Below are positions 959-46,444 of a DNA stretch of 64,000 nucleotides, one piece after another. This DNA comes from Mustelus asterias. Its lineage: Eukaryota. A program made the translations under genes and the position numbers. The notes below the pieces were generated by a model. The model saw nothing but the letters and a program-made list of their open reading frames with translations. It was not told where the DNA came from and did no database searches. The stretch lies in NCBI RefSeq assembly GCF_964213995.1, contig NC_135825.1, forward strand, positions 12,338,001 to 12,402,000, read 5' to 3'. Numbering within the stretch: position 1 is the first letter of the stretch; every line of letters starts with the position of its first letter.

Positions 959-995
959 ATGTGGATTCTGATTCTTGTCATCTTTTCTCTGCCTG
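959..995 (+). CDS. Receptor gene 1 exon 1: signal peptide (MWILILVIFSLP-G)
   Basis: ATG at 959, hydrophobic 12-mer, phase-1 donor G|gtgagt at 995/996. Joins in frame to exon 3728 to give MWILILVIFSLPGALQA. Near-identical paralogous exons at 55195 and 58235. Confidence 0.9.
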
Positions 996-1691
996 GTGAG
1001 TAAGGGACAAAAATGGATCCCGAGATGATGAGTGTTAGATTAAGTCTAGTGCATGGTTTATCCCGCAGAGATATTTAAATACTTGGAGACATGTAAAGCT
1101 ACAAAAACTCAGCAAAAATAAATTAATGAATTTGTGTGATATTTGTAGCTATTTTGTTGATAGTATTGTACCACAGAAATATTTACCCAGCAAATAGTAA
1201 ACAGCATTATTGATTGTGAATATAAATTAACCTATTTATTTTTGTTAAAAAGCGATATGATTCATATAATTAAAATGCAGAAGCAACACATTTCAGTCCA
1301 GTAAAAGTTAACTTGTTAATGTAGTTTCATGCTCAATATATCCTGGAGACTGGAGGGTTTGATTGGCTCAGTTGTTTGGAGTGCAATGCAGAATGATTCC
1401 AATGGCAGGAGTTCAATCCTCAGAGCGGCTGTGGTAGTTTATGGAAATCTGCCTCCTCACCTTTCCCCATTCCTGTGGAGTGGTGCCCCCCACACTAAAT
1501 GTAACCAATTATCTCTCCCTAATGTTGAGAGATGCCTGTGACCCATTGCAGATTATTGCTCATTGAATTGACTCTGAAGACTGCAGAGGCAACAAAGGCT
1601 CCAGGAAAATATTCCTCAAGTTTGCAATTGTTTCTATTATTTAAATTACATCTGATGAAAGTTTTATCAATCTCTGTCAGTGAGTCTGTTT

Positions 1692-2022
1692 CATAGAATC
1701 CCTACAGTGCACAAGGAGGCCATTCGGCCCATTGAGTCTGCATCAAAGAGCGTGTTACCCATGCCCGTAACGCCACATATTTGCCTCATTAATTTTCTTA
1801 ACCTATACATCTTGGGACAATAAGGGGCGATTTAGCATGGCCAATCAACCTAAACTGAACATCTTTGCAGTGTGGGAGGAAACTGGAGTACCCAGAGGAG
1901 ACCCACACAGAAATAGGGAGAAGGTGCAAACTCCACACAGACAGTCAGCCGAGGCTGGAATTGAACCCGGGTCCCTGGCGCAGTAAGGTAGCAGTGCTCA
2001 CCACTGTGTCAACATGCCACCC
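1692..2022 (-). mobile_element. tRNA-derived SINE (HE1-like)
   Basis: Reverse complement of the SINE seen on + at 52387, 53450 and 61397 (ggtggcac..gtggttagcactgct..ggttcaattcc head; ..gattctatga tail). Confidence 0.8.
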
Positions 2023-2199
2023 AATCACTTGTACATGCTTCGTCTGCTTTGTCCATCCAAGACCTAGTCATTTTCTTCTAATTCTTTAACATTTAACAAA
2101 GTAAATCTAAATTTTCACACCAGCCCCATATTAAATTGATGCTATTATGCTGTCTGCAATGGAATTTTTGATTCATACTGCCAACTCTCCTCCTCAAGA

Positions 2200-2700
2200 T
2201 GAACATTAGAAATAGGAGCAGGAGTTGGCCATTTGTCCCTTTGAGCCTGCTCCATCATTCAACAACATCCTGACTGATCTCCTCAATTCTTATTTCCTGC
2301 ACAATCCCCATACCGCTCGATTATGTTGGTACCAAAAAATTGTATAAATCTCTGTGTTTAATATCCTTCAAGACTGAACATCTAAAGCTCTCTGGGATAG
2401 AAAATTCCAAAGATTTGCAACACCTTGAGTGAATAAAAATCTCATCTCATCCTTCGTGTCTGTCACTTTATTCTGAGACTGTGATCCTGTGATGCAGAAT
2501 GCCCAGCCCTGGTAGGGTGGTACATATATGCTCAAAATGTACCCTGTCAAGCCCCTTCAGAATTGTACACATTTCAATTCAATCACCTTTGATTCTTCCA
2601 ACTGACAGGAAATATGCACCTTGTGGACTCAACCTGTTCCCATCCCATCCCCTTATCCCAGGAACCAGTCTCGGGAATCTTCATTGCACTTTTCCCTGAG
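2200..2700 (-). mobile_element. Degraded CR1 LINE 3' end
   Basis: Minus-strand translation FLFTQGVANLWNFLSQRALDVQS resembles CR1 FFTQRVVxLWNxLP; 3' UTR tail gaacattagaaataggagcagg. Confidence 0.65.
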
Positions 2701-3727
2701 TAATGTGTCATTCCTGGTGCACTGACCTGTGGGGCAGACTGAGGCCCAGATTGCCGTCCCTGGGTCGTGTTCACTGAGTCGGGAAAGGCAATAAAAATGA
2801 GTCGGGACGGGTGACCCGGGAACAAATCCACAGGCTGCTCAGCCCGGAGGTGAGCTGGACACAAGGCCTTTTTCTGTGCCCCAGCGCCATGGTTAATAAA
2901 TAAAATAATGTAAACAATCAAATAATCACTCCGGCCCTGACCGCTCACCAGAGTTTGTCTCAAAGAGTAACTTTCCTCCCCAACGAGTAACTTTCCCCTC
3001 CCAAAGAGTAACTTCCCTCTCCAGAAGGTGTACCCTGGCTGTCCATAAGAATCCACCAAGTTCAGACCTTTTCTTCAATATTCTAATCTGCACATTCCAG
3101 ATTCCACACTCCTGTTCATCCAAAATCCCACTTCAGTCGAGGCAGATGATGAATTTAAGGCAATCCAGAGTTGAACGAATCGCGTGTGTGTGAATGCCAG
3201 CCCGATTGCAGTCCCACTCCCACTCTCCGGGCTTCGAAATTCCAGCCATTCCTGGGATTTTCTCCATGACAGGGAATGTCCAGACCTGGGTGTCAGATTA
3301 ACCTTTCACCTGAAAGACATCACTGAGCTCTGTGAACATGACTGGGGGCAGGAAAATCTGAGCCATCTTGTCCCTCAGTATTACACTGGAATGTTAGTGT
3401 CGGTTTTATACTCCAGTCTCTGGAGTGGGACCTGACCCTGCAATCCACCCATTCAGAGGCGCCAGTGCAAAGCTTGAGTGACAAGGTGACACAATAACAA
3501 TGGCCACTGTACATTAACAAGAAATCATTGTCAGTGAAGGACTTTGGCACTGACAGCACGGCTCTATATTCATGTTTTCATTCATCACAAACCAGAAAGA
3601 GAATGATGAATACAGATATTGGAGAGTTTCCTCTGTACACAGTGGTAAATCTTATTAAAATGTTTCTCTCTGCATTAAGCAGTTATTTACTTGGTCAATC
3701 GCTGAAATGTTGTCTCCTGAGTTTCAG

Positions 3728-4042
3728 GTGCGTTGCAGGCAGAAATGAAATTAACAGGAATTGTGGGAAGATCGATCACAATAAATTGCAAATATAATGG
3801 AAAATACAGACAATATGTGAAATATTGGTGTCAGGGTTGGACTGAACGGTGCTCATATTCAGTGAGAACGGATTATCCAGATGGACGGCGAGGGAGAATG
3901 TCGATCACAGATAACAAGACACAAGCAATATTTGCTGTTACGATGGAGGATCTTCGCCTCGGAGATGCAGGAGGGTACAGCTGTGGTATTGATAAACCTG
4001 GCAAAGATCCAAAGATTGCTGCGGAGCTGCAAATATCTGAGG
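3728..4042 (+). CDS. Gene 1 exon 2: IgV domain V1, CD300/pIgR/TREM-type
   Basis: Acceptor tttcag|3728, donor G|gtacat after 4042. GRSITINCKY...KYWCQGWTERCS...GRMSITDNKTQAIFAVTMEDLRLGDAGGYSCG: B/F-strand Cys, C-strand Trp and the second Cys pair (WCx6C) typical of CD300/pIgR V domains. Confidence 0.92.
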
Positions 4043-4967: not shown

Positions 4968-5079
4968 CTTTCAAATAAGCCACTGAAAACGCAGGGTGAA
5001 GCTGACAGATTAAAAGTTAACAAATTGGCAAATTTAACAATTAAATAATCCAAAATGGTGAAAGCCCCTTAAAGGGATC

Positions 5080-6014: not shown

Positions 6015-6651
6015 TGTTGTGGGAAATGTACCACTGAGTCAGGCTTGAAGGTTTCAAGAATACAGTTTTATTTTCACGAAGCTTCGTGGAGAAAGGGCAC
6101 TAACAAGCAGCAAACCTTCTCTCAATGAGACAATAGGAGCAGTCCATCTTTACACCCTTTACACAGTAGATGGACCGGACATCTAGCCATTATCACATCA
6201 TTGTAATCAAGTAGGTGATCGATCGTTAACACATCGTTATAGACAAATACAGACAGACACAGACATAAGCATGTTAACATCGCATTGTTCTATGAATGGA
6301 TACATTTCCTACGTCAGTGACCATCAATGGTTTTAGTTTCAGTCTGTTCATACAGCAATTTACAGTAATTGGTTTTCCTGCAGTTATGTATTCCCGATCC
6401 CACCTGTAGCTAATCTCGTTATCCAACCCTATTGTGCTTATCCTAAAGAGTGCCTCAAACCCTGGCTGGCTTCCTGCAGGATTTGATTCCTGCACGTTTA
6501 ACTTTGAATGACTGTCTGTCCTTTATGTTTTAATCTCAGGTGGCTGTCTGTATTGAAAGTCAATGCCTGTTTAATGTCTCTTTCCCAGGTGACTGTTTGT
6601 GTGCCAGGCAGCCATCTTATGTGTACCCATCTGTATATTTTTCCCACTTCA
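6015..6651 (-). repeat. ERV 3' LTR
   Basis: 637-bp direct repeat of 13666-14293; immediately preceded on the minus strand by the polypurine tract. Confidence 0.95.
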
Positions 6652-6663
6652 GTCCCCACTTTT
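6652..6663 (-). other. ERV polypurine tract
   Basis: Minus strand AAAAGTGGGGAC abuts TGAAG, the start of the 3' LTR. Confidence 0.8.
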
Positions 6664-6704
6664 GGTCGGATTATGAGTTTCACTAATCCTGAGACCAACA
6701 ATTT

Positions 6705-8134
6705 TTATATGTATAATTCTTTGTTCTTCTTCTTTCCTTCTTCGTTTCTTCTGATGTCTTCGGGGATCTTCATCGGGGTTTCTTCTTCGACGTATACACT
6801 GGCTCCTGGCACAATTCTAGTCACCATCACCTTGCAACAGACTTTTAGGCATCCAACAATTAGACACCAGACAATTACAATTGAAATGAGCATGACCAAT
6901 CCATGTAATAAGTAAGATTCCCAGGACCCCCCCACTACCCATTCCAGCCAGTTACTTCCTTTCTTGGGTCCCTGTCTGAAGCTATCAAGTTGTTCTCTGA
7001 TGCTATTGATGACCTGTGTAATGTTATAGGACTCGTCTGTGACATGGGTTCTGCATTTATTGCCTATAATTGTACACACTCCCCCTTGTTGTGCTAACTG
7101 ATAGTCCACTGCATATCGTGTCTGTTGTGCATATAATCTCAGTTCAGCCATTTCGTGGTTAACAGCCTCCAGTGCTTTTGAAGTCCTGTTTCCCAGGACT
7201 GTTAGTCCACAAACAATATGATTCCTATTCTTTGCACTAATCACTCCTGCTGCCCCGCCCCCCCGCCCCGCCCCCCCATAGATAAGGCTCCAAGGAACCC
7301 ATATCCCAGTGAAGATCCTATTGTGCCTGGGGCTTCCCAGTCAGCGCAGCATTCTTTGCTGATAGCCCAAATTACTATTCTCCTCCGAATATGCCACTTC
7401 TGAGGGCATGGAACAGTCAGTGGTCCGATTGTTCCTGCTGCAAAACGGTTTGGGAGGTTTGGTATTTCTATCATGTAAGTACCATTGAAGAGCAACACAT
7501 ATCCCTTCTTAGCCCGGTAACATTTAGTGTCTTGATTATGAGTTTGCTCATATTGCCGGTTGTTCGGTTTACTTGACTCCCCGTTTGATCCCACCACCTG
7601 GTAAGTATCAAATGGGTATGTCCATTTGGCTGAGCTTACGTGAGTTCCATTGCATTGTCCACAAATAAGCTGTTTTCCTGCGGTTATATTCAGACATTTC
7701 TGTTCATCACAAGTGCAAGTAAACTGTCCCTTATTAACCCGACAATGTTGATGGACACACTGTGTCTATACGCAGGAATCATTCTTTGGGACCAAGGCAT
7801 AGGCACATCCCCATCCCTGCCCCGTAAAACAAAGCGGATAGCTTGCAGCATCTGAACAAGCTTTTCCTCCCACCTGTTGGATCTTTGGGGTTTACAAGTC
7901 CCACACATCTCCCCTGTATACTTCTTTTATATTTGCCAATTTGTCCCTTACATGATGTATCTGATGTATCTACAGTATATAAGTCATGAGGGGTTCACCC
8001 AGGGGTGGCTACAAATAGGGCTTCTACCGATTGTGCTAGCGGGTAACATACAGTTCAATTCCCGTGTCCAATCCAGTCAAAGTTACAGTCGCGACAACGC
8101 AAAATAGTACAGTTACATACCCGATTACATACAT
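6705..8134 (-). pseudogene. env: ERV env (frameshifted; SU and TM)
   Basis: Signal-like MYVIGYVTVLFCVVATV from 8134; basic cleavage region HIRRR; fusion-peptide-like GSSLGYGFLGALSMGG; ISD-like QQTRYAVDYQLAQQGGVC; CTIIGNKC(R) as a decayed CX6CC; hydrophobic TM LLHGLVMLISIVIVWCLIVGCL. Confidence 0.88.
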
Positions 8135-8282
8135 ATTCGCAATGATCAAATATCAAACCTAACACTATAATTCATATAATCTTTACAAGTTATATTATCT
8201 ATCACCCTGTGCGCGCCAGTCATTCTTGCTTGCAGTCTTTGCCTGTGTTGAGGAAAGCATTTTCGTTAGTTCATCAATTTAA

Positions 8283-11200
8283 TTACTTATTTGTTCTCTT
8301 GTGTAATTTTAGCTGTGTCCAGTGTTTCCAGACCCCTTTCCCTCTTATGTCTATACAGGCACAGGTGTCTCCACTAATTATAACTTCATATGGCCCATTC
8401 CATTTTGGTGCAAACCCTGGTTTGTCAGGTAATGTTTTTACGAGGACTCGACTTCCCACTGTTGGGACGTCAGGGAGCATTTCAAGCTCTCTCTCTGCGT
8501 CTTTTATTTCCTGATTGTCCTTTACCAATTTGCGCATCCCTTTTAGTTGGGTGCTCAGTTCCAATACATATCTCCTGATTTTATCTTTTAGTGGACCTAC
8601 ATCAGTCCCACCTGTTCTGATGCTTTCGGGTAATTGCATCGCCCGTCCTGTCATTCGCTCATGAGAGGTTAATCCGGTTGTCCGGTTTGTGGTAGCTCTT
8701 AATCTCATTAGTATAGTGGGCAATACGCCTGTCCACATTTTTCCTGATGTTTGTATGGCTTTAGCTAGTGCATGTTTCAGTGTTCTATTCATACATTCCA
8801 CCATTCCAGAACTCTGTGGGTGGTAAGGGATGTGAAATTTTTGTTTTATCCCCATTAATTGGCATACTGTTTTTACCACCTTTCCAGTGAAGTGCGTCCC
8901 TTGGTCCGAATCGATTTGTAGGGGTACACCCCATCTAGGGATTACCTCTTCTGCCAATATTCTAGCCACCGTGGTAGCAGTACAATTTGTAGTAGGGAAT
9001 GCTTCTACCCACCTGGTGAACTGGTCTATAATAACCAGACAATAAGTTTTGCCATGGGATTGTGGTAGTGGCCGTGTGAAATCTATTTGCAGATGTTCCC
9101 TTTGGTCTCGGCTGGTGTCCCATTTAAATTTTATGGGTCTACCAGGGTTGTGTTGCGCGCATGTCATGCATCGGTGACAGTGTCGGGCTATATCTCTTCC
9201 CATTCCTTTCCACCACCATTCCTTTCCTATACTAGTTATCATGACTCTCGACCTACTTGTGAGAGTCCATGGTATAGTTCCAATAAGGTGTTTTGTATGC
9301 ACTCTGGTGCTATTACCTTATCTTCCCGTTTCCAAATGTTATCAGTCCCTTTGGCTGCTCCCTGTGCTTCCCACTTCTCCTTTTCCTCCCTTGGGGTATC
9401 CTCATGTAATTCCCGAATATCTATTTTGTCTCCTGTCTGTTCTGTTGCTGCTATTGGCAGCTCGCCAATTGTCTCCTGTCCTGAGGATCACTGTGCCGCC
9501 CTGTCTGCGGCTTGGTTCCCTTTGAAATTGAACCAGTCCGGGTTATCTCTTCCTGGTTCTTTCTGGTGCGCTTTAATTTTGATTACTGCGGTTTCTCGAG
9601 GTTTCTCGCTAGCTCTCAATAATGCCTCAATTCTTTGCTGGTGCTTAATAGGGGTCCCTCCTGTGGTTATGAACCCTCTTCTTCCCCATGCTGCCATGTA
9701 GTCATGTATGACCCCGAATGCATAGCGACTGTCTGTATAGATGTTTACCGTTTTACCTTCAGATAACTCTAGTGCCTGTGAGAGTGCCACTAGTTCTGCC
9801 ACTTGCGCGGATAGACCTCCGTCAATCCTTTCTGACCTTACTGTCTCTAATTTGTCATTCACTACTGCCCACCCTGTGCGGGGTGATACTTCCACATATT
9901 TGCGTGACCCATCCACAAAAAAGGTCTCCTTGGCTGTTATTAAGGGAACGCATTCCAACCATTATTCATGTAAATTGAGTCTGTGTCTTTATATGCCCTG
10001 TTTGTGAACAGAATTCCCACTCACCTGAAGAAGGGGCTTGGAGCTCCGAATGCTTGTGTGGCTTTTGCTACCAAATAAACCTGTTGGACTTTAACCTGGT
10101 GTTGTTAAACTTCTTACTGTGTTTAACCCAGTCCAATGCCGGCATCTCCACATCATCTCTTTCTGTCGCCATGGTCTTGTGTTACCATGGCGGAATAGAA
10201 CCCTCCCTCATTACTACAATGGATATGGAAGTCCTTATTAGAATCGGGTAATCCTAGTCCAGGGGTTGATATCAGTTCTGTTTTCAGTTTAGTGTAAGCC
10301 TCTTCCTGCTCGGGTCCCCATTCTACAGGATCCAAAGCTGGTTTTCCCCCATTGACTCGTCTTTGTATGGGTTCTGCTAATTTTGCGAACTCTGGGATGA
10401 AACTGGGGCTATAGTTGAATAGTCCGAGCATCTTTCTGACCCCTCTTCCAGTGATGGGTCACGGAATTTGTTGTATTGCCTTCTTTCGGTCCGTTGGCAT
10501 TTCTTTAAGTCCTTGGGATATAAGGCGTCCTCGGTATAGGACCTGTGTTTTCCCGATTTGTGCCTTTTTGGGGCTCACCTTTAACCCTGCGGCTTTTAAT
10601 TCATTCAGTACTAAATCTAAGGCTTCTTGATGTCCTGACTTGGACTCCGAAGCTATCAGGATATCATCTACATATTGTAGGACCGTACTACCCTCTGGCA
10701 GTTCTACCCGGTTCAGGATGTCACTCATTGCTCGATGGAATATAGCGGGGCTGTTGTGGAATCCCTGTGGTGAATGAGTCCAAGTGTACTGCCTGTCTCC
10801 CACTGGAAAGGCAAATTTGTCTTGGGATTCAGGATCCAATGGTAAGGACCAGAATCCATTGGCTACATCCAACACTGTGAATATTTTATGCTCCTGTACA
10901 GTCCATTCAGGATTGTCGAAGGGCTTGCTACAATGGGGTGCAATTTGGACGTGACTTTATTGAGTCCGGTGTAATCTATCGTGAGCCTATAGCTTCCGTC
11001 AGGCTTGCTCACTGGCCATGCTGGGGAGTTAGTGGTGCTTGTGGTTTCTCCCAGAATCCCCCTTTCCACTAACCCTTTAACGATCTCCACTGCAGCTTTC
11101 TCTGCCTCTGGTTTGATTGGGTATTGTCGGTGTGGCTTATGCTCCGGTCCCGGGACCTTTATTGAGTCCGTTTTAGTCAAACCGGTTTCTAACTTCGTTT

Positions 11201-11637
11201 TAGCCCATACTCCAGGGACGGAGGCACAGATGGCTCCAAACCCTCCTGTTTCTAATTCCCAATTTCTGGTGGTGACTGTGGCCACCTTAATAGTTTTGAG
11301 GTGACTTGTAAGTTTCCCTATTCTAGTTTTCTGACCGTCCTGTGTTGGCCAGATTAATTCTCCCTTTCCAGTCTATCAGAATCTCCTTTTCTTTCTTCAG
11401 ATCATTTCCCATTATTGTACCCTCGTTATTTTTGCACACATAAAACCTCATTGGTATGTACAGATTATTTATCTCTACTAAGGTGGTCTCGCTCAGGTAG
11501 GCGGGTGTTTTGTTCTCTCCTATCCCGGTCAGGTAAATCACTTTATTTGTAGTGGGTAAGGGTAGGTCGGTGACAGATATGGACACTCCTGTGTCCACTA
11601 GCATCTCACATTGTCTGCCCCCTACTTGTGCTGACAC
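8283..11637 (-). pseudogene. pol: ERV pro-pol (protease, RT, tether, RNase H, integrase), multiply frameshifted and interrupted
   Basis: LVDTG protease; QYPIKPE, LDVANGFWSLPL, PQGFHNSP and LQYVDD in RT; FFVDGS, AQVAELVAL and NIYTDSRYAFG in RNase H; HCHRCMTC, HLQIDF, WVEAFP, DSDQGTHF, HPQSSGMVE and KWNGPYEV in integrase. Confidence 0.95.
9949..10155 (+). mobile_element. Penelope-like terminal-repeat fragment inserted in ERV pol
   Basis: Matches the arm of the 4586-4967 element and sits between the tether (..DHGDRKR) and RNase H (CVPLITAK..) segments. Confidence 0.8.
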
Positions 11638-11685
11638 GTAAATCCTTCCCTCCTTCTTACCCTTGTGAATGGGGGCTGCAGACCG

Positions 11686-13099
11686 TCAATCTTGCTGACC
11701 CCGGAGGTCCTGTGGTTCCTCCGGTTCTGCTGTGGTCATGGATCGGGTCGGGGGTTTCCCATGCTTATTCCAACACACTGCTTCTGTGTGTCCATATTTA
11801 TTACAGTGGCTGCAATGTTTCCCACTGTTCCCAAATCTGTTCCCTTTCCGTGGAGTCCCGCAATCCCTCGCAAAGTGTCCTTGCCGGCCACAATTGTGGC
11901 AAGTCAGTTTAGACTTTGTTCCCTTCCCATTACTGTAGGCTGCTACTCTTTCCAGCCTTGTTCTTGCCTGGGATTTCTCTTCTCCCGGTACTCCGCAAGC
12001 CCACTCTACCAACTCAGCGTAATCTTGGGACATAATCACTCCCATTTTTAGGATGACCTGGTGAGCACTGGAGAGTCCATCCTTAAAAGCCTGGATGAAC
12101 TCTTGATCCCCTCGACCTGGGTTCCCTTGTCCTGAGCACTCTTGATATATCTGGAACAATTGTTCCCCGTATTCAGAAGCTCCTTCCCATTTTAACTGTT
12201 TTGTTGTGGTAATTCTGCTCCAGTTGGTGGGAGCATTCCCTAATACCCTCTGAATCTCTGCTTTAAACTGGGTGAAGGTTGGGCATCTATCTCCGATGTT
12301 AGGGCGATTGCATGTGTCCACCGTCCCTTGTTATAATCCTGTGCTGGAGGAGCGGTGGGTCCACCTGCTACCTGCCTCCACTTATCCGCTGGACAGGCTG
12401 CCCTGACCAGCTGGTGTACGTCTCTCAGGTGTAATTGGTGTCCTAACCAGATTGTGTCTAATTCTTCCCAGAATTTAGTGTTTGCACTTCTCTCTCACCT
12501 GGGGTGAAGGGTTGATAAGTTGCCTTTGGTCGCGCATTTGTTCCCCCTCGGGGTACTGGCGCTAAGTTGTGTTTTAGCACTTCCCACTCCTCTGAAGGAG
12601 CGGTTGGTCTCTCCTGTGTGGACTCATAAGGAGGTAGAGGAACAGTTTCCCCTCTCCATTGCTTTTCTTCTAAAACCTGGTTTTGCTTTTCCAGTTCCCT
12701 CACTCGGGATTCCAATTCTCTAATCCTTTCCTTATCTTCACTCCACTTCTTAGTAGAGGCGACTACTTGCTCAATTAGACCAGCTAACTCATGTGTTAAC
12801 ATTACTCCTATCTTCTTTGTCTTGTTTCTCTTTTCTTTATCTATCCACTTTCTCTGCTGCTCTAAGGTCTGAGATATATCCCAGCCATCCTTTTGCATTC
12901 TCTTTATTAACTCTTTCCTGTCTGTCATGTAAATTTCAATGAGAGAACCTGCAGGTCCCCTTTTAACTTCATTATCTGCTATTTTGCAGACTTCACTAAC
13001 CCCGGCCACGATTACTCCCTGGTGAAGTGTGCTCTCTACCGTAGGGACTTCGCTACCCCCGGCCACTATTACTACTCTAGCACTGTGTTTCACTACCAT
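11686..13099 (-). pseudogene. gag: ERV gag (frameshifted) with two CCHC zinc knuckles
   Basis: ORFs 12458..13099 and 11686..12321: coiled-coil region, PPY late-domain-like LPPYE, YQPFTPGE, and CHNCGRQGHFARDC plus CSHCNKYGHTEAVC (CX2CX4HX4C x2). Confidence 0.88.
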
Positions 13100-13644
13100 T
13101 ACAGGGTTTCAAGTTATACTCATGGTTTCCACTATTACCACCTCGGCAATGTGCTTCTCCACCGGAGTCCGGTTTAGTTCAGAGTTGATCAAGCTCCTTT
13201 TCCGTCCCGCTTTTCACAACATTGACAGTACAGTTCCCAACTGTCCAAACTTTCATGCAATCAGATGGCAACTCTGCGTTTGTTCACCACGACAGAGTTT
13301 GATGTTAACCGACCTCTGCCACTTATCTCTTTACCCACTTCAATCTCCTGGCCTTCGTGTGGGAGGTTCCTCCTCTTAACAACCGGTCTAAGGCAGGGTT
13401 TTGAGACAGGCACGACCTTGTCCTCTTGTCGGTCAGCACAAGCAACAGTTACTTATCACTATCAGCAGTTAGTACTTATCACTATATCATATACAACAAT
13501 ACTTATTTCTACAAATACCCCTTAAGTTTAACCCCTTAAGTTTAACCCCTTGCAAACTGTATGCTTGACCTTGTCTGACACTCACAGATTCAGTGATCTG
13601 TACCCTGGCTCCGATCGTGGCCAATCGATCTCACCAGTAACAGG

Positions 13645-13663
13645 ATCCATGCTGACTACGCCA
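13645..13663 (-). other. ERV primer binding site, tRNA-Ser type
   Basis: The + strand ..atccatgctgactacgcca closely matches the 3' end of vertebrate tRNA-Ser (..ATCCTGCCGACTACG-CCA). It is separated from the 5' LTR by a 2-nt spacer. Confidence 0.8.
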
Positions 13664-13665
13664 AT

Positions 13666-14293
13666 TGTTGTGGGAAATGTACCACTGAGTCAGGCTTGAA
13701 GGTTTCAAGAATACAGTTTTATTTTAACGAAGCTTTGTGGAGATAAGGCACTAACAAGCAGCAAACCTTCTCTCAATGAGACAATAGGAGCGGTCCATCT
13801 TTATACCCTTTACACAATAGATGGACCGGACATCGAGCCATTATCACATCATTGTAATCAAGTAGGTGATCGATTGTTAACACATCGTTATAGACAAATA
13901 CAGACAGATACAGACATAAGCATGTTAACATCGCATTGTTCTCTGAATGGATACATTTCCTACATCAGTGACCATCGATGGTTTTAGTTTCGGTCTGTTC
14001 ATACAGCAATTTACAGTAATTGGTTTTCCTGCAGTTATCTATTCCCGATCCCACCTGTAGCTAATCTCGTTATCCAACCCTATTGTCTTTATCCTTAAGA
14101 GTGCCTCAAGCCCCGGCTGGCTTCCAGCAGGATTTGATTCCTGCATGTTCAACTTTGAATAGCTGTCTGTCCTTTATGTTTTAATCTCAGGTGTCTCTCT
14201 GTACTGAAAGTCAGTGCCTGTTTAATGTCTCTTTCCCAGGTGACAGTGTGCCAGGCTCTTATGTGTACCCATCTGTATATTTTTCCCCCTTCA
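13666..14293 (-). repeat. ERV 5' LTR (TATA box ~13800, AATAAA ~13720 on minus strand)
   Basis: 628 bp; about 30 substitutions plus small indels versus the 3' LTR by manual count (~95% identical). Confidence 0.95.
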
Positions 14294-17375: not shown

Positions 17376-17684
17376 CTGCAAGTGCATCGTGGGCAAAAAA
17401 TAATGTAACAGGAGTTTTGGGAAGATCGATCACTATAGATTGTCACTATGACAAATTGTCTCAGTCACATGTGAAATATTGGAGTCGTCAGTGCTCTGTT
17501 TTGGTAAAATCAGACGATCCAGATGGACGGCGAGGGAGAATGTCGATCACAGATAACAAGACACAAGGATTTTTTGTTGTTACTATGGAGGATCTTCACT
17601 CAGAAGATGCAGGATGGTACAGCTGCGGTATTGATAAGCCTGGCCTCCTTTCAATATTTCCTGTAAAGCTACAAATATCTGACG
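17376..17684 (+). CDS. Gene 1 IgV exon V2
   Basis: tttcag| acceptor, G|gtacat donor, 309 nt, phase 1-1, open frame (GRSITIDCHY..KYWSRQCS..EDAGWYSCG). Confidence 0.88.
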
Positions 17685-20369: not shown

Positions 20370-20693
20370 AACCCTTGTCTGTTCCTGAACTTAGATTTTT
20401 ATCACCACCAAATGCCACATGTTTTGGGGGCTCAGTGTCCGTCTCCTGTGAGTCTGTCCAGGGATCACTTCCCATTCAGTACACATGGTACGAAAATACC
20501 ACATCTGAAGATTCAAAGACCTCTGACACCAATAAACTGGATCTACATTGTCAATCCTTCAAACAGCAACATCATCAATATTACTGCACAGCCTCAAATA
20601 ACCAGGGAGGAAAATCCAGTGAAATGGTTACAGTGTCAGTGATCCACATTTCAGAGAATGACTGCAGTTATTTAACACAAATCAGCAACATTG
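20370..20693 (+). CDS. Gene 1 Ig C2-type exon C2
   Basis: AG/GT sites, 324 nt, open frame (ORF 20375..). Confidence 0.88.
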
Positions 20694-21362: not shown

Positions 21363-21671
21363 CTCCGAGTGCATTGTGGGCAAAAAATAATGTAACAGGA
21401 GTTTTGGGAAGATCGATCACTATAGATTGTCACTATGACAATTTGTCTCAGTCACATGTGAAATCTTGGAGTCGTCAGTGCTCTGTTTTGGTAAAATCAG
21501 ACGATCCAGATGGACGGCGAGGGAGAATGTCGATCACAGATAACAAGACACAAGGATTTTTTGTTGTTACTATGGAGGATCTTCACTCAGAAGATGCAGG
21601 ATGGTACAGCTGTGGTATTGATAAGCCCGGCCTCCTTTCAATATTTCCTGTAAAGCTACAAATATCTGATG
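21363..21671 (+). CDS. Gene 1 IgV exon V3
   Basis: AG/GT sites, 309 nt, open frame (ORF 21374..). Confidence 0.88.
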
Positions 21672-25344: not shown

Positions 25345-25653
25345 CTCCGAGTGCATTGTGGGCAAAAAATAATGTAACAGGAGTTTTGGGAAGATCGATC
25401 ACTATAGATTGTCACTATGACAAATTGTCTCAGTCACATGTGAAATATTGGAGTCGTCAGTGCTCTGTTTTGGTAAAATCAGACGATCCAGATGGACGGC
25501 GAGGGAGAATGTCGATCACAGATAACAAGACACAAGGATTTTTTGTTGTTACTATGGAGGATCTTCACTCAGAAGATGCAGGATGGTACAGCTGTGGAAT
25601 TGATAAGCCCGGCCTCCTTTCAATATTTCCTGTAAAGCTACAAATATCTGACG
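25345..25653 (+). CDS. Gene 1 IgV exon V4
   Basis: AG/GT sites, 309 nt, open frame. Confidence 0.88.
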
Positions 25654-30001: not shown

Positions 30002-30310
30002 CTTCAAGTGCATTGTGGGCAAAAAATAATGTAACAGGGGTTTTGGGAAGATCGATCACTATAGATTGTCACTATGACAAATTGTCCCAGTCACATGTGA
30101 AATCTTGGAGTCGTCAGTGCTCTGTTTTGGTAAAATCAGACGATCCAGATGGACGGCGAGGGAGAATATCGATCACAGATCACAAGACACAAGGATTATT
30201 TGTTGTTACTATGGAGGATCTTCACTCAGGAGATGCAGGATGGTACAGCTGTGGTATTGATAAGCCCGGCCTCCTTTCTATATTTCCTGTAAAGCTACAA
30301 ATATCTGACG
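30002..30310 (+). CDS. Gene 1 IgV exon V5
   Basis: AG/GT sites, 309 nt, open frame. Confidence 0.88.
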
Positions 30311-32556: not shown

Positions 32557-32865
32557 CTCCAAGTGCATTGTGGGCAAAAAATAAAATAACAGGAATTTTG
32601 GGAAGATCGATCACCATAGATTGTCACTATGACAAATTGTCCCAGTCACATGTGAAATCTTGGAGTCGTCAGTGCTCTGTTTTGGTAAAATCAGATGATC
32701 CAGATGGACGGCGAGGGAGAATGTCGATCACAGATAACAAGACACAAGGATTATTTGTTGTTACTATGGAGGATCTTCGCTCAGGAGATGCAGGATGGTA
32801 CAGCTGTGGTATTGATCAGCCCGGCCTCCTTTCAATGTTTCCTGTAAAGCTACAAATATCTGACG
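32557..32865 (+). CDS. Gene 1 IgV exon V6
   Basis: AG/GT sites, 309 nt, open frame. Confidence 0.88.
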
Positions 32866-35150: not shown

Positions 35151-35459
35151 CTCCAAGTGCATTGTGGGCAAACAATAATGTAACAGGAGTTTTGGGAAGA
35201 TCGATCACTATAGATTGTCACTATGACAAATTGTCTCAGTCACATGTGAAATATTGGAGTCGTCAGTGCTCTGTTTTGGTAAAATCAGACGATCCAGATG
35301 GACGGCGAGGGAGAATGTCGATCACAGATAACAAGACACAAGGATTATTTGTTGTTACTATGGAGGATCTTCGCTCAGGAGATGCAGGATGGTACAGCTG
35401 TGGAATTGATAAGCCCGGCCTCCTTTCAATATTTCCTGTAAAGCTACAAATATCTGATG
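35151..35459 (+). CDS. Gene 1 IgV exon V7
   Basis: AG/GT sites, 309 nt, open frame. Confidence 0.88.
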
Positions 35460-37730: not shown

Positions 37731-38066
37731 TCCATAGATTCATAAAATCCATAGAATCTTACAGTGCAGAAGGAGACCATTTGACGCATCGAGTCTCCGC
37801 CAACGTCAATCCCACCCAGGCCTTATCCCCATAATCCCATGCATTTACCCCAGCTAGTTCCCCCTAACACTGAGGGGCAATTTAGCTTGGCCAATCCACC
37901 TAATCCGCACATCTTTGGACTGTGGGAGGAAACCAGAGCACCCGGAGGAAACCCACGCAGACACAGGGAGAATGCGCAAACTCCACACAGCCAGTCACCC
38001 GAGGCCAGATTTGAACCCGGGTCTCTGTGAGGCAGCAGTGCTAACCACTGTGCCACCATGCCGCCC
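37731..38066 (-). mobile_element. HE1-like SINE inserted in an older Deu-type SINE
   Basis: Full-length reverse SINE. The flank at 38070-38245 has ggcagcacctccaacagtgcagcac..tactgcac, typical of DeuSINE-family heads. Confidence 0.7.
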
Positions 38067-39406: not shown

Positions 39407-39485
39407 TCGGACCTGAAAATTCTTCTGAAGTTTTAACAGTATCGCCAACACATTCGTCAATTCCAAACTCCAAACCTGCTGAAAG
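39407..39485 (+). CDS. Gene 1 stalk exon (VGPENSSEVLTVSPTHSSIPNSKPAE-S)
   Basis: ttccttctttcag| acceptor, AG|gtacac donor. Ser/Thr/Pro-rich. Phase 1 in, phase 2 out, which matches the TM exon. Confidence 0.8.
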
Positions 39486-41139
39486 GTACACTGTTTTTAT
39501 TGTTAGTGTTTAAATGACATGGCTTCTGTGTGAGTGATTAAATCCTCTTTAACAACTTTGGCGTGAGGATGGATGTCATTTATTGTCCTGGGCCAGTCAC
39601 AGAGCAGCAATCATTGTTGGATTGCCACTCCGCTCGAAGCTTTCCACCTTCGACTCAGCTCCACATTTCTTGCCTGATCTTCCAAGTCCAGATTCTCCAG
39701 AACTGTGGAGCGCAGTGTCCCTCAGAGAACTCCATCGCAACTCAGTAGGACCACAGGTGGGTCGGGTGAACGATGGATCGGGAGACAGGTGTATCGATGT
39801 GTTGGTAGTAGGAGGCAATGGTGGTAGGTGGGTGAGAAGACAGATGAGTGAGGTCATAGGTGTGTGAGATGGGTAGGGTTGCAGATAGGTGAGGTGGTAG
39901 ATGGGGAGGGTGGCAGTTGGGTGTGGTAGGAGGTTGATGAGGTGGTAGATGAATAGGATGGTAATCGGGTCAGGTTGGCAGGGGTAGCCTGGTTTGGGGG
40001 CTAATCAGATTTGGACCTTGGGTAAGCTAGTGGTGGGTGCAAAGAGTAGCCTGTGAGAGTAATCAGATTGGCTCAGGTTGTGGCGTCGTCACAAGGTCAG
40101 ATGGGATAGTCGGGGTGTGGGGTGATAGTTGGTGTGGCAAGCGGTTCATCAGAGGATTGGGGGGACTCCAGGGGGTCAGTGTGATTATTCGGGGGTCAGT
40201 TCTGTGATTACCCAGGGATGAAACTAGATTCTTTCAGTCTAACATTTCCCGGGTAACTATCCAGTTAAGCCCCATGGAATTGTTTGAAGTGTCTGACTCT
40301 TACCCAGAGCTGAAGATTTTCTCAGAGGGACCCAGGGAACAGCAGAATTGTCCGTTGGAAGTTCCAACGTCCCAGGCAATTCCCATGGAAGTCATCATGT
40401 TGGGTCATCTGCAGGGTCCTGACACACATCTTGGGTCATATGTCCAGTCTCTGATGATCCGGGAAACTGGGCATCATTTTTCAATATCTCTCAGATCAGA
40501 AACCTTGGCGGGATGTTGTTGTGTTCGCTTCATAATGAAAGTGCGAGTTTTAAAAAGGGTTGATTTGATGTGATATCATTAGGGTGCGTGCTCAGGCTGC
40601 TGTGTTACTGTCAGTTTTGTACTTGATGTAGTGCAGAGAGCAGCTCTTCAATAATTCCTGTTGTGTGCTTGCTTGAATCTACGTGTGCAAACCAAGTCTT
40701 TTCTTTTCCTGTTAAAACCCACAACTCCTAACATAGTTGGGACATACAGAAAGAGCAGAAATTGTTGTCCAATGTAAACACGGAGGTTACAATGGTGATG
40801 AGGAGAAAATACCAACTAAACATCAAAATGATGAAAAAGCTGCTGGAAATACGCAGCAGGTCACTTCTTATCTACAGAGAAAGCAGACAAGGAGATCTTT
40901 CAAGAAATGGCTAATATTGATCTGGTCAAAGTTCACTGCTGTTTTTGAGATTTTGCTGTGTGCAAATTGGTTGCCACATCTCCCATATCACAACAGTGGC
41001 AGTTGTCTAAAAATACTTCCCAGATTGTAAAATTCTTTAGACCATCCAAAGGTCATGAAAAGTGCTGTAAAATTTCAAAACCCACTTCCTTAAACAAATG
41101 GCCAAGAATCAATTGTGGCAGGAAACAAAGGATGATTGT

Positions 41140-42080
41140 TGATGTCTGTTTTTGTGACTGGAAGGCTGTTTCCAATGCTCAGTGCTCGGTCCCCTGCTTT
41201 CTCTGGCATATATTAATGATTTAGATGTAATGTAATGAAAATTACCAATGCAGTAGATAGCGAGGAGGATTGCTATCGGCTGCAGGAAGATATCAATGGA
41301 CTGGTCAGGTGGGCAGAAAAGTGGCAAATGGAATTCAACTCAGAGAAGGGTGAGGTGATGCATTTGAGCAGGTCAAACAAAGCAAATGGTTAGACAATAA
41401 ATGGGAGGATACTGGGGGATATAGAGGAAGTGAAAATCCTTGGAGTGAATGCCCAGAGGTCCTTGAAGGTAACAGGACAGGTCGATAAGGTGGTTAAGAA
41501 GGCACATGGAATCCTTTCATTCATTAGCCAAGGTATGGAATTTCAGGTCAGAAAGGTTATGCTGGAACTATATAAAATATGAGTTAGGCCATAACTTGAG
41601 CACTGTGAGCAGTTCTGGTCACCTCATGACAAAAAGGATGTATCAGAGAGGGGACTTACAGGGATGTTGCCAGGACTGGAAAATTGCAGCCAAGAAGAAA
41701 ACATTGGTCGGCTGGGGTTGTTGTCCTTGGTTTAGGGGAGAATTGATTGAGATGGACAACATTAAAAGCAGCCCAGATAGAGTGGGCGGGAAGGACCAGT
41801 TTACTTTAGCAGAGAGGTCAGTGACTCGGGAGCATAAATTTAAAGAAATTGGTAGAAAGATGGGAGGAGAGATGAGGAAAAGTGTTTTCACCCAGAGGGC
41901 TGCAGATTTCTGAAAGGGTGGTAGAGGCAGAAACACTCAACTCATTTCAGAGATGTCTGGATAATCTGCAGGGCAATGGACACAATGCTGGAGAATGGGA
42001 CTGCACTGGGGGGCCGGTTTTTAGACACAACAGACATGATGGACCAAGTGGTCACTTTCTGTGCTGTAAACTTTCTATGA
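41140..42080 (+). mobile_element. Degraded CR1 LINE fragment
   Basis: LQEDINGLVRWAEKWQMEFN and SVTREHKFKEIGRKMGGEMRKSVFTQR resemble CR1 ORF2. Confidence 0.8.
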
Positions 42081-42124
42081 TTGTAAAGTCCAACACTGCT
42101 CATTTCCTATTCTCTGTGTCACAG

Positions 42125-42213
42125 TCTGATTTACATTGTGCTCGGGGTGCTGGGGGCCATTCTTGTGGTGTTCGCTGTTTCTCTACTTTTGTACCGGAGG
42201 CGAATCGACAAGG
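42125..42213 (+). CDS. Gene 1 transmembrane exon (SLIYIVLGVLGAILVVFAVSLLLYRRRIDK)
   Basis: cacag| acceptor, G|gtgagt donor; about 23 hydrophobic residues with no charged residue, followed by an RRR stop-transfer. Confidence 0.9.
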
Positions 42214-43192
42214 GTGAGTTTCTGTTTCTCCTGAATCATTTTGTTATATTACAATCATTTTCTGAAGAATATAAAGAGAACCTAATTTGCTGCAATCAAC
42301 AAACATCTCTGATTCTGGTATCCTGCACATTCTAACATAGATGTATTCAACATGGAAGAATATTGAAGTTGTTCCTGTTGTTTGGAAATAACAAATAACC
42401 CTGTGAACTCTGGAGAAAGTGAAACTCAACATGGGTTTAGAATGATAGAGACCATAAGACAATAAGAAATAGGAACAGGATTAGGCCATTCAGCCCATCG
42501 AGTCTGCTCCGCCATTCAATGTTTAAGACCAAGGGCGGGATTGTTTTGGCCGTGTCCACCCCAAGATTGGAAGTTCCCGTCTAAGGTCAACGGACCTTTT
42601 AAATTGTCCGAGAAATTCTCTGTCCCGCCTGCTACGATTCACAATGTGGACGGGATGGGAAAATTCCGCCCCAAGTCATTTCTTTGCTTAGCTCTGTGAG
42701 GGAAATCTTTCAGTGATCTTTCAGTGTGACAGCCTGGTTCCCCAAGCTCCCAAAAATCTATCCAGGTCTGACTTGAGTGCACTCAATGGTGGAGCATTCA
42801 CAGCTCTCTGCGATGGAGAATTCCAAAGATACAGAACTTTCTGTAATCTCGCCCAATCTCAGTAAATGGGCCCACGCTGTGCTCTGAGACTGTGACAGAT
42901 TTAAGGCAGAGATCGATAGATTCTTAATTGGGAAGGGGATCAAAGGTTGTGGAGAAAAGTCGGGAGAATGGGGTTGAGAAACTTATCAGCCATGATTGAA
43001 TGGTGGAGCAGATTCGATCGGCTGAATGGACGAATTCTGCTCCTATATCTTATGGTCTTATGGACTCTGTGTTCTAGATTCCCCAGTCAGTGGAAACATT
43101 TCCTCAATATCTGCCCTGTGAAGTCAATTGAGATTTTCTTTTTCAATGAGATCATCGCTCATCCTGCTGAACAGCAGAGAATATCGGCTTGG

Positions 43193-43462
43193 TGTGGTAC
43201 CATTGCCCCTTTATTGCGCAATTCTTCAGGGGCCATGTGACTGGGCCGTAACCAATAGAGTGCAAGTGCACCAGCCTATCGGGAGCCTACCGGGAGCGAG
43301 GGCATGCAGCCCGGGGGCTGGAGGCTATTGTTGAAGCCAGGACATTGTTAGGAGTCGGCCTGTATCGTTGTGCTGTTAAACCCTTCATTGTATTGAGTTC
43401 TTCGCAATCAATAAATCCTTTAGTTTGTAACTTACCACATCGAGTTGCCTCGAGTTATTACA
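43193..43462 (+). mobile_element. Short solo LTR
   Basis: TG..CA ends, internal aataaa, near-TSD CTTGG/CCTGG; interrupts a CR1 remnant. Confidence 0.55.
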
Positions 43463-43765
43463 CCTGGTCGACTCAATCTTTCCTCATAACACAATTTCCG
43501 TATCGGGAATTAACGCTGTGAACCGAGGGTGGGTATGTCCTACCTGGAGCCAAAACCTACAAACAGCACTCCAGGTGTGGCCTCACCAATTCCCCATTTT
43601 ATACACAAACCCCTCTGCAGCAAAAGAAAACAACCCATTTGCCTTTCTTTCAATGCTAATCAATGTGGGGCCATGTACCCTGCAACACATGTTCAGTTCA
43701 GACATTCTAAGCATATCTACCATTCCAATTCAAGCCTTTTCAATGTTAACATTTTCATTTTTCAG

Positions 43766-43818
43766 ATACAAATGACATAAGCCACGGAAGAGACAACAAT
43801 AATCTTATTGACAATCAG
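43766..43818 (+). CDS. Gene 1 cytoplasmic exon (DTNDISHGRDNNNLIDNQ)
   Basis: tttttcag| acceptor, CAG|gtgagg donor; phase 1 in, phase 0 out, linking the TM and last exon in frame. Confidence 0.8.
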
Positions 43819-44440
43819 GTGAGGAGATGAAGTGTGAATTCTCTGACTAATGTCTGGAAATTTTCAAACCTGGATGATATCGAATTGACAGGACTGAAAC
43901 AGGCCATTCAGGCCAACTAGTCCATGCTGGATTTGATGCTCAACACAAGCCTCCTCCCATCCCTCTTTATCTAACCAGACCAGCATCAGCTTCTGTTCCT
44001 TTCACTCACATTTGCTTCTGTAGATTTGCCTTAAATGTATTGATGCTATTTAACTGAACTGCACCTTGGACTGGTTCCAATCTTTAATCTCATTGGATGG
44101 GCATAAAGGGAGATAGACCTTGGCTTTACCGTCAGAAATGAGACCTCGTTAATTATTGCATCCCAACTTTGGATTTGATTTCATTTTTCAGTTTACACTC
44201 TCGTATATTCCTGTAAAGTCTTAGGTATTACTGCCAAAACAGAACAAAACTTCAGAATAAGAAAATGCTATCAAACGCTAACGAGTCCATCTGTTGTGTG
44301 ATGAGAGTTGGCTTTGCTGTAACATCACCCATCGTGTCCCGAAGCTCTGGAATCCTCTCTGTCTAATTCATCACTTCATTATTCCTTTAAGGCATTCCTT
44401 AACATGTCTTTGCCTTAAACCTTTGATAGATTTTGGTCAC

Positions 44441-44718
44441 TGTGGTGAACCATAGATGGTTACCACTATGGGTACTTGCACATATGTTACTCTTGTTACT
44501 GTTGGGGTTAGGGTTTGGGTGTTCTACCTGTTATTATTGTTTATGTGGTACACTCCGTTCGGCTCCGCCTTCTTACAGGAGTATAAAGGTCACTGCTACT
44601 TCCTAGTAGCCCTTAGTCTGGGATAGTATTGTTAAGTCGTGTGCTCCAATCTTGTTGTGAATAAAAGCCTTTATTCCCGGGTACGTCCTAGCCTCCCATG
44701 TGAATCAATCGCGCATCA
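44441..44718 (+). mobile_element. Short solo LTR
   Basis: TG..CA ends, perfect 5-bp TSD GTCAC (44436-44440, 44719-44723), TATA gtataaagg at 44581, AATAAA at ~44660. Confidence 0.8.
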
Positions 44719-46309
44719 GTCACCTTCACTGATATCTCCTTCCTTGGTTTAGTTTCTGTCTTGGGGCATTTTACTATGTTGAAGGCTCCAAATAAATGTA
44801 GTTCTTTGTGTTAAATATGGACGTAGCTAATTCTAATTTAGGTTCGCTGCTGGTTCTACTGTGAGATAGTAACATGAAAGATGCTATCATTCTGAAGGGA
44901 TTAGCATCATTGAATGCAGTAGTGTTCCCCTGTGAATTAATTACAACACAGTTCACTGGGAAACTGCTGTGAAGATGTTTCAGTGCAGCTCCCACACTTA
45001 CAGATGGACAGCACACACAAGCTGCCCAAGAGACAGAGGGGGAGAACTCTGATAATCACAAGCTATAACAGCAGGCGTGGATGTTTGGATGGTGTAACCA
45101 TATAGGCACACCTCGTTAGTAGTTAATCATTATAATTAGACAAGCATATAGAGGCTATAACTGGTTAACGATATTCAACTAACATAAATGAAGTAATCAG
45201 AACTATTCGCTGTAATTGGATATCAATGAGTTCTGAACAAATGTTGACTTGTGATTGGTGTATGAGAATTATATGTAAGATACACAAAGATAGAATGGTG
45301 CATGCCATGTACCAGTACGCCACCTTGTGGGAGGCAGACTTCCTCGCTAAAGGGTGAATAAAGGCCGATTTAAAACCCCAAAATCTTCATCTGGTCTGTC
45401 GAGGGTGCGAAGTATAATTTCGCTAGATGGCAGCAAAATGCCATATCACATTCTGCCTTGGAAAATTAAAAACTTAAGGCGAGATTCAGCAGGCTGGGCC
45501 TCTCTTTGATTAACGATCTGATTGAGATCATCAAGATTTAGGTAGAGATAACAAAGATGTTTCCACTTGCAGGCAAGACCAAAACCAGTGGCCATAAATA
45601 GTGGATAGTCATTAATAACAGGTAGTGGTGTCGTGGTATTGTCACTGGGCTAGTAATCCAGAGACCCAGGATCATCCTCTGGGTATCTGGGTCCAAATCC
45701 CACCAAGGCAGAACTCAATAAAAATCTGGAATTAAAAGTCTAATGATGATCATGAAGCTATTGTAGATTGTTGTAAAAACCTATTTGGTTCACTAATGTC
45801 CTTGCGGGACATTTCCCTTAGGAAATCCGCTGCCCATACCTGGCCTGGCCTACATGTGACTCATAAATGCTCCGTGAAATGGCTGAGCAAGCCATTCAGT
45901 TCAATTAGAGATGGGCAACAAATGTTGGCCAACCAGTGACGCCCACATCCCATGTGTGAATCAAAAAGGTGAATCTAACAGCAAATTCAAGAGAAACATC
46001 TTTACCCAGAGTGTTCAGAATGTGGAATTTTCCACCACAGGGAACAGTTGAGGTAAACAGCTGAAATACATTCAAACAGAAGCTGGATAAGCACATGGGA
46101 AGGAAAGGATTTGAATGTTATTTTGATGAGATTAACTGGACAGGTTTATGTGGAGTTGGGACAAATGATGTGTTTCACCGCTGGAGATAGATTATCTCAT
46201 GTTGTGATCACTTGTAAACTGATTTGCAATGATCTAGAAATCGATTTCTCCACAAATCACCATTCAAGTTAAATGGAAATAAATTGGATCGTTATTTTTT
46301 ATATTGCAG

Positions 46310-46444
46310 CAATTGGCAGTTGTAGAAGAGAGCATTGTGTATGCCAGTGTAAAGCGCAATCGAGGGAACTCAGCAGAAACACGCAGCGAGCTAACTGTCC
46401 GGTTCATTAACAATGAGGATGGAGTCACATATGCAACACTGTAG
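46310..46444 (+). CDS. Gene 1 last coding exon with two ITIMs (IVYASV, VTYATL*)
   Basis: tattgcag| acceptor; QLAVVEESIVYASVKRNRGNSAETRSELTVRFINNEDGVTYATL-stop. Both motifs fit (I/V/L/S)xYxx(L/V). Confidence 0.88.
   Translation, partial: QLAVVEESIVYASVKRNRGNSAETRSELTVRFINNEDGVTYATL

Follow-up and report, generated by a model that had tools for sequence, protein, structure and literature searches.

A fourteen-Ig-domain receptor gene of the MDIR family in Mustelus asterias, read as a likely tip sensor on an accordion-like spacer

The window, a stretch of 64,000 nt from the Mustelus asterias genome, carries a predicted receptor gene between positions 959 and 46444 (Table 1). The 19 rebuilt exons, separated by GT-AG introns throughout, join into 4,830 nt that encode 1,609 aa and end at a single terminal stop. 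The product consists of a leader, seven V-C2 pairs of Ig domains, a stalk, a TM without charged residues, and a tail with two ITIM-consensus motifs (IVYASV, then VTYATL, the C-terminal end of the protein). Exon set, frame and layout agree with those given in the earlier note. All 14 Ig exons are of phase 1-1, and the predicted ectodomain contains 26 sequons. At V1, use of another acceptor that lies 6 nt further upstream (exon start at 3722 instead of 3728) would give 1,611 aa, and a matching 'PVSG' junction is used by the NCBI model and by skate MDIR3/5. Beyond the stop of the last exon lies what is left of a third tyrosine motif, now out of frame (about 46557–46592), and an ATTAAA is found downstream at 46648. 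The endogenous retrovirus in the V1-C1 intron lies outside the receptor coding part.

Table 1. Exons and other features of the receptor gene (positions within the window).
Feature	Position	Strand	Remarks
Leader exon (ATG, most of signal peptide)	959..995	+	N-terminus identical in NCBI model P0001
V1, tip V, CD300 type, with C-C' cysteine pair	3722..4042	+	CD300LF 79 bits; second acceptor 3728
Broken endogenous retrovirus in V1-C1 intron	6015..14293	-	LTRs 93.7% identical, 5-bp target duplication
C1, FCRL D4-D9-like C2	15934..16257	+	exon model, domain comparison
V2, internal V subtype, lone C' cysteine	17376..17684	+	exon model, subtype comparison
C2 (second C2 domain)	20370..20693	+	exon model
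V3, internal subtype	21363..21671	+	exon model
C3	24353..24676	+	exon model, skate MDIR match
V4, internal subtype	25345..25653	+	exon model
C4	29010..29333	+	exon model
V5, internal subtype	30002..30310	+	exon model
C5	31564..31887	+	exon model
V6, internal subtype	32557..32865	+	exon model
C6	34157..34480	+	exon model
V7, internal subtype	35151..35459	+	exon model
C7, membrane-proximal, most divergent C2	36744..37067	+	exon model, C2 comparison
S/T/P-rich stalk exon	39407..39485	+	without the cysteine present in most family stalks
Uncharged TM exon	42125..42213	+	exon model
First cytoplasmic exon	43766..43818	+	exon model
Last coding exon, two ITIM-consensus motifs and stop	46310..46444	+	exon model

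In the NCBI annotation the gene is represented by two models, one called 'titin-like' and the other partial, with the break between C6 and V7. The leader, stalk, TM and tail exons of all mapped cluster genes find no match in 4043–39200, and the splice sites at the break, the C6 donor and the V7 acceptor, correspond to those found in the other units, which argues for a single gene. Separate leaders for V2–V7, whose exons begin with a signal-peptide-like end, were considered and rejected, as there are no leader matches within the array. Contigs from 4 of 10 runs (two other organisms, two studies), of guessed RNA nature and with repeats dominating the tables, were aligned to 28900–46600 at 82% likeness, and the 15 joints listed, of a set with 732 more, included no C-to-V or other exon joint. 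Contig pieces from one of these organisms, in one study, start at the V7 and last-exon acceptors (35150, 46307–46308), a weak hint of spliced RNA from a relative.

On sequence comparison, the gene is a member of the shark MDIR (modular domain immune-type receptor) family. The C3 domain is 63–66% identical to clearnose skate MDIR3 (ABC86797.1) and MDIR5 (ABC86800.1), and V7-C7-stalk-TM-tail, compared as P0081 (identical to the last 329 aa of the receptor model), is colinear with MDIR3 (161/331 identical, 49%, E 3e-98). In domain trees (without an outgroup, the V tree only a quick one), domains group by genus, repeats included, and MDIR3/5 fall in a skate clade. The sequence matches, from comparisons of the kind proposed in the earlier note, place the gene with the MDIRs. 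The V and C2 types, the V-C alternation, the homologous TM and ITIM tail, and the existence of charged-TM members in a multigene family are common to the clearnose skate MDIRs (MDIR2, MDIR3) and the M. asterias family, for which ITIM and Arg-TM genes are mapped in the same cluster. The receptor differs in having 14 Ig domains (five in MDIR3, four in MDIR5), in repeats built from a galeomorph-specific internal V without the C-C' pair, and in a tail cut down to two tyrosine motifs. MDIRs reportedly have one to six Ig domains, according to Cannon et al. in 2006; the 14 found here exceed that range, which is descriptive rather than diagnostic and is exceeded by database relatives as well. The family and its V-C alternation are known, and the locus adds a long-array variant.

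Long arrays are not confined to this gene. There are 55 C2 matches on one 0.7-Mb stretch of contig C25; the sequence covered excludes C25:12.16–12.24 Mb. Two sister ITIM genes of the cluster carry 6 and 11 units, respectively, and units per gene range from 1 to 11 (2 to 22 Ig domains, about tenfold). Long arrays recur in skates and rays, and thorny-skate models reach 18–19 Ig domains, with arrays of 9 and about 10 units. The long database models P0006, P0007, P0008, P0010, P0011, P0019 and P0125 were not counted at full length, being adjacent-gene fusions (internal TM or long insert), and P0002 and P0003 probably join exons from tandem gene copies. An exceptional status for the seven-unit architecture, which the earlier note had called unusual, is not supported, V-C alternation being usual in this family and arrays of 6, 9, about 10 and 11 units existing in this genome and among thorny-skate models. 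The earlier note had named an architecture both common and described as grounds for refutation; such arrays are common, and no description of long-form MDIRs was found in the literature, where Cannon 2006 and Cannon 2010 may already mention longer ones.

Within the array, exons and introns have diverged differently. The aligned V and C exons contain no indels in 633 columns, where 9.3 would be expected from the introns (29 gap events in 1,974 columns, possibly over-counted, many being single bases), a deficit with a Poisson P of about 1e-4. Unit-to-unit p-distances are 3.4–6.5% for exons and 7.0–10.3% for introns. Both results uphold the earlier view that the 14 Ig exons stayed free of stops and frameshifts while the introns gained indels, and point to purifying selection on the frame. 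Selection at the amino-acid level within the window is weak, at dN/dS values of 0.44 and 0.61 with binomial p values of 0.053 and 0.092.

The closest single solved domain to V1 is CD300LF (79 bits, E 1.7e-21), and the best solved relatives of the repeated V are CD300 and pIgR domains. CD300LF and CD300A share the extra cysteine pair with V1, and the CD300 or CMRF35-like family likewise has paired ITIM and charged-TM forms. CD300 receptors have one V domain and no C2, whereas the receptor here has 14 Ig domains including C2. Like it, pIgR is a chain of related V domains, and is the top whole-chain PDB match by sequence and fold; its individual domains score at most 31 bits against V1, and its ectodomain is V-only, with no C2 and no ITIM pair. 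The CDR1 loop of pIgR D1 has a role in polymeric Ig binding. It is two residues longer than that of V1; V1 and V4 both show the two-residue gap and different residues, neither V type having the pIgR-D1 CDR1 length. Siglec-1 and CD22 raise an N-terminal V-set binding domain on many spacer domains, and CD22 signals through ITIMs, but their V family is different, their stalks are C2-only, and the C2 match to CD22 d6-d7 is weak (E 1e-6). The C3 domain resembles FcRL5 D4-D9 (17.5–33.7 bits on six domains; whole-chain E 2.5e-42) and not D1-D3 (3.5 bits at most), and FcRL5 is absent from the matches listed for the V domains against solved structures. FcRL5 is also long and ITIM-bearing, with tip binding domains on a flexible run of repeated C2; D1-D3, described in PMC12757038 as the IgG-binding domains, have no counterpart here, where V domains are interleaved with C2.

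The seven V domains are of two kinds. Only V1 has the CD300-type C-C' cysteine pair; V2–V7 form a distinct internal subtype that has lost the first cysteine of the pair and kept the lone C' cysteine. In six other galeomorph genera, too, this subtype, with its 4-residue deletion and lone cysteine, is found behind a C domain, the lone cysteine being conserved in seven shark genera. This cysteine may be stapled to the unpaired one of the C2 before it: a 5-Cys C adjoins a 3-Cys V at 25 junctions, but a 4-Cys V at 28. Selection also differs: V1-type tips (6 distinct of 8 found) have a dN/dS of 1.77 (codon bootstrap 1.07–3.64) and internal V exons (23 distinct of 24) one of 0.53 (0.33–0.92), at equal dS (about 0.07). 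Codon ML across paralogues gave omega 1.73 for the tip type and 0.44 for the repeated V, separate values being favoured over a shared one (LRT 14.0, p 2e-4). The repeated V is under purifying selection (p 3e-5); tip omega above 1 is not significant alone (p 0.096 by ML), and it is weakened by the small number of sequences (six), by their shared history and by gene conversion. The BC, CC' and FG loop regions, which make up 26 of the 106 columns of the tip, hold 11 of its 16 most variable columns by our count.

The best reading is likely that of a tip sensor on an accordion-like spacer, a multivalent binder being less likely. On balance, the gene probably encodes an inhibitory receptor whose one ligand-sensing domain, V1, is held far from the membrane by a six-module internal V-C2 spacer. 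Unequal crossing-over of a 2.6–4.7 kb V+C unit would add or remove modules with the frame kept, because every Ig exon is phase 1-1, and would have produced the 1 to 11 units of the cluster, independently in different lineages. V1 may bind a variable ligand, e.g., a pathogen surface or a self marker mimicked by pathogens, Src-family kinases would phosphorylate both ITIMs, and activation would be damped by SHP-1/2 or SHIP. As activating partners, the reading has the nearby Arg-TM, short-tail genes with the same tip type; two of the six types are found on such genes. If extended, the glycosylated stalk would measure up to about 55 nm and would lift the tip beyond the glycocalyx. An extended rod is a tentative prediction, as the AlphaFold2 model of V1-C1-V2-C2 (pTM 0.39, low-confidence linkers) weighs against a firm claim, and a fold search with it gave only low TM-scores. 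A lengthened inhibitory receptor can lose inhibitory strength if its activating partner does not match it in size (PMC3001952). This weighs against the spacer, since no mapped Arg-TM gene exceeds three units. Skates may fall outside the spacer reading, as internal V domains of their long forms retain the cysteine pair.

If the array were drifting near-neutrally by unequal crossing-over, with frame and fold kept and the symmetric exons often skipped, the seven-unit form would be minor or tolerated. This is rather unlikely, though the spread of unit number within one cluster, the weak within-window selection, the 11-unit sister (one V exon of which holds two stops) and the loss of the third tyrosine motif from the tail are consistent with it. 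It is opposed by the lack of exon indels and by the recurrence of long arrays in skates and rays. In a sub-case, the NCBI split would represent a secreted 12-domain form and a short membrane form, but the stretch that closes the 12-domain model (about 34800–34900) is intronic and occurs in sister arrays too.

It is unlikely that the internal V or V-C modules each bind one copy of a conserved, repeating ligand (polymeric IgM, lipid arrays and glycan lattices being examples), with unit number setting the inhibition threshold. The low omega of the repeats also fits a conserved ligand bound many times, their closest solved relatives and the conserved lone cysteine are compatible with binding, and an avidity-type reading of Ig exists for FcRL5 (PMC12757038). 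The internal V has nevertheless lost the C-C' pair, both V types lack the pIgR-D1 CDR1 length, the C2 resembles non-binding FcRL5 domains, and fast amino-acid change is seen only in the tip type. The earlier note had proposed avidity-based binding by a multivalent array, and this part of its reading, like the exceptional architecture, is not supported; the single ITIM-bearing gene with CD300/pIgR-type V, C2 and a long ectodomain is borne out by the rebuilt exons and domain matches.

An assembly artefact, with reads of a shorter gene or of two haplotypes piled into seven units, is highly improbable: five 37-kb copies elsewhere in the cluster score identically for C exons, but no two V or C exons of the window are identical (98.7% at most), introns are 7–10% apart, and the long matches between units, at 89–97.5% identity, go with insertions peculiar to single units and with nested duplications, which shows that the array is not assembly stutter.

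The MDIR family has long been known but little studied. A 2026 review (PMC13337447) treats Ig sensing in cartilaginous fishes without pIgR, FcR and FCRL genes as an open question. It is quite improbable that the missing antibody receptors of sharks are the long MDIRs, as chimaeras that combine V domains of CD300/pIgR type with C2 domains of FCRL type and whose unit number, fixed by accordion-like gain and loss of exon pairs, tunes how far they reach and how avidly they bind polymeric IgM or immune complexes; if true, this would answer how these fishes sense Ig. The rebuilt model corrects the annotation, in both the divided gene and its 'titin-like' name, and the cluster offers candidate sensors of Ig or pathogens for sharks, in which reviews describe Fc receptors as absent. 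At this locus, a paired-receptor cluster, frame-safe duplication of exon pairs goes with an about tenfold range of ectodomain lengths, and amino-acid change is focused at the tip; this makes it a natural setting in which to ask if the length of a receptor tunes inhibition.

Six-frame translation of the window placed seven V-set exons (V1–V7) in alternation with seven C2-type exons (C1–C7) on the plus strand. The 19-exon, 14-Ig-domain frame proposed in the earlier note, with an uncharged TM segment and two ITIMs, was rebuilt: a leader, 14 Ig exons, a stalk, a TM and two tail exons are all joined at GT-AG sites into 4,830 nt, which code for 1,609 residues and end in the only stop. The Ig exons are phase 1-1 in 14/14 cases, and the ITIMs read IVYASV and VTYATL. 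The start of V1 probably lies 6 nt upstream of the site first chosen. ITIM 2 is followed by an immediate stop and a frameshift that remove an ancestral third tyrosine motif (window 46445–46600); the stop position is a glutamine codon in one paralogue. There are three cysteines per internal V (V2–V7) and five per C2, and the unpaired ones could form inter-domain or inter-chain bonds; the stalk lacks the cysteine that most family stalks carry. AlphaFold2 gave four beta-sandwiches for V1-C1-V2-C2, with an extra C-terminal strand in each C2 (pLDDT 74, pTM 0.39, a model that does not fix the relative domain arrangement).

The NCBI annotation divides this locus into XP_078098060.1 ('titin-like'), which spans the leader to C6 and terminates in intron sequence, and XP_078098061.1 (partial), identical to the last 329 residues of the 19-exon model. 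A single gene is the simpler reading, because splice sites at the split point match those of the other units and nothing inside the array matched a leader, stalk, TM or tail exon. No transcript spanning the units was observed.

A search with the C3 exon, which matched an NCBI model from Mustelus asterias at 100%, returned 130 longer proteins with E values of 1e-8 or lower, with only sharks and rays among the 120 matches listed. C3 is 66% identical to clearnose-skate MDIR3 and 63% to MDIR5, and the last unit, TM and tail align end to end with MDIR3 (49%, E 3e-98). CD300LF (79 bits) comes closest to V1, which carries a C-C′ cysteine pair of CD300 type; on every domain of two pIgR chains V1 scores at most 31 bits, and it lacks the longer CDR1 of pIgR D1. 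The C2 exons match FcRL5 domains 4–9 but not domains 1–3; in FcRL5 itself, IgG is bound by D1–D3 and D4–D9 are flexible (PMC12757038).

DNA identity is 94.8–98.7% among V2–V7, only about 75% between these and V1, and 89–98% among C1–C7. Exons carry no indels (9.3 expected) against 29 gap events in 1,974 intron columns (P about 1e-4), and differ less between units (p-distance 3.4–6.5%) than introns do (7.0–10.3%), so the frame is kept by selection or exon homogenisation. Within the window, dN/dS is only marginally below neutral for V2–V7 (0.44, p 0.053) and C1–C7 (0.61, p 0.092); for C1–C6 alone, p is 0.015. A near-neutral accordion in which exons are often skipped heads the alternatives but is improbable.

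The retrovirus in the V1–C1 intron has LTRs 93.7% identical, a 5-bp target duplication, and zinc-knuckle, RT, integrase and TLV_coat/HR1-HR2 env pieces spread over several frames. Frames near the right end of the window look like a decayed gene of another retroelement; two scanned pieces of them had no Pfam match. The V exon following the two further leaders lies beyond the window (C25:12408588).

Features of the window and of the surrounding MDIR cluster (contig C25)
Feature	Position	Strand	Basis or remark
Sister ITIM gene, 11 V-C units (22 Ig exons)	mapped stretches L016–L023, C25:12019882-12081459	+	cluster mapping
Pair of additional MDIR leader exons, within a 500-bp duplication	window 55184-55239, 58224-58279	+	
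Broken endogenous retrovirus, V1–C1 intron	window 6015-14293	-	LTRs (6015-6651, 13666-14293) and domain pieces
Fragmented frames	window about 59650-61470	-	resemble decayed envelope/fusion gene
12-bp tandem repeat, 8.8 copies	window 62861-62966		

At least 55 C2 matches in the genome lie at C25:11.87–12.58 Mb; 598 kb plus the window were mapped, leaving out 12.16–12.24 Mb. Both strands carry genes. Their V-C unit counts are 1, 1, 1, 2, 6, 7 (the present gene) and 11 for the ITIM type, and 1–3 where the TM has an arginine and the tail is short. The 11-unit sister has two adjacent stops in its third internal V exon, and is therefore a pseudogene or dependent on in-frame skipping. At C25:12.11–12.27 Mb, a 37-kb unit is present in five copies with equal C-exon scores, of which the outer ones were retrieved; either the segment duplicated very recently or the assembly is over-expanded.

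Among distinct exons of the mapped cluster, excluding those with stops or cut by stretch borders, dN/dS was 1.77 for V1-type tips (n = 6, bootstrap 1.07–3.64), 0.53 for internal V (n = 23), 0.63 for C (n = 43) and 0.72 for canonical V exons of other types (n = 13), with dS about equal in tips and internal V. dN exceeded dS in 15/15 tip pairs, which are not independent. By codon ML, omega was 1.73 for tips (not significantly above 1, p 0.096), 0.44 for internal V and 0.76 for C, and tips and internal V differed (LRT 14.0, p 2e-4). Variable tip columns concentrate in the BC, CC′ and FG loops. V2–V7 share a four-residue deletion taking out the first cysteine of the C-C′ pair; C domains are followed by this subtype in Cetorhinus, Carcharodon, Stegostoma, Rhincodon, Chiloscyllium and Hemiscyllium as well. 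The module is therefore an old internal one, multiplied in Mustelus.

Most likely, V1 senses a variable ligand. It would stand on a glycosylated spacer made up of repeated modules (the predicted protein has 26 sequons), about 55 nm if extended, at an estimated 4 nm per domain, and inhibition would run through the two ITIMs and SH2 phosphatases, the route established for ITIMs. Array length could change by unequal crossing-over without breaking frame, since the exons are symmetric. The multivalent, avidity-based binder of the earlier note ranks next among the alternatives and is also improbable. An artefact is highly improbable, as the array units are too diverged for assembly stutter.

V-C alternation is the rule among relatives in other species, and long arrays occur in sister genes and skates, making the architecture less exceptional than first thought. 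Long forms elsewhere are predicted models rather than cDNAs, and 7/15 screened for internal breaks proved to be fusions or to contain long inserts; among the unbroken ones are models from thorny skate (18 and 19 Ig domains), sawfish and Mobula (8) and little skate (10, without a TM). In domain trees built from the window and 19 chosen proteins (76 C rows and 84 V rows, with few columns and a quick V tree), repeats cluster with those of their own genus or of near relatives, a pattern pointing to independent expansion on several occasions or to concerted evolution. The 2006 MDIR paper reportedly gave a range of one to six domains. No description of long forms was found in MDIR, CD300 and pIgR literature, including that on shark, skate and cartilaginous fish, in a search reaching few subscription papers. 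The observation is real; the MDIR family was already known, first described in 2006 (as cited in PMC3031540), and the long variant is the new part.

Two of the six tip types are carried by Arg-TM genes, a layout expected of paired receptors. Size-matching of inhibitory and activating pairs matters in NK cells (PMC3001952); there is tension with this, as the longest forms are inhibitory and the mapped activating forms short. Cartilaginous fishes are stated, in PMC4016189 and PMC13337447, to be without pIgR, FcR and FCRL homologues, and for this reason it is worth asking whether the present receptor binds Ig.
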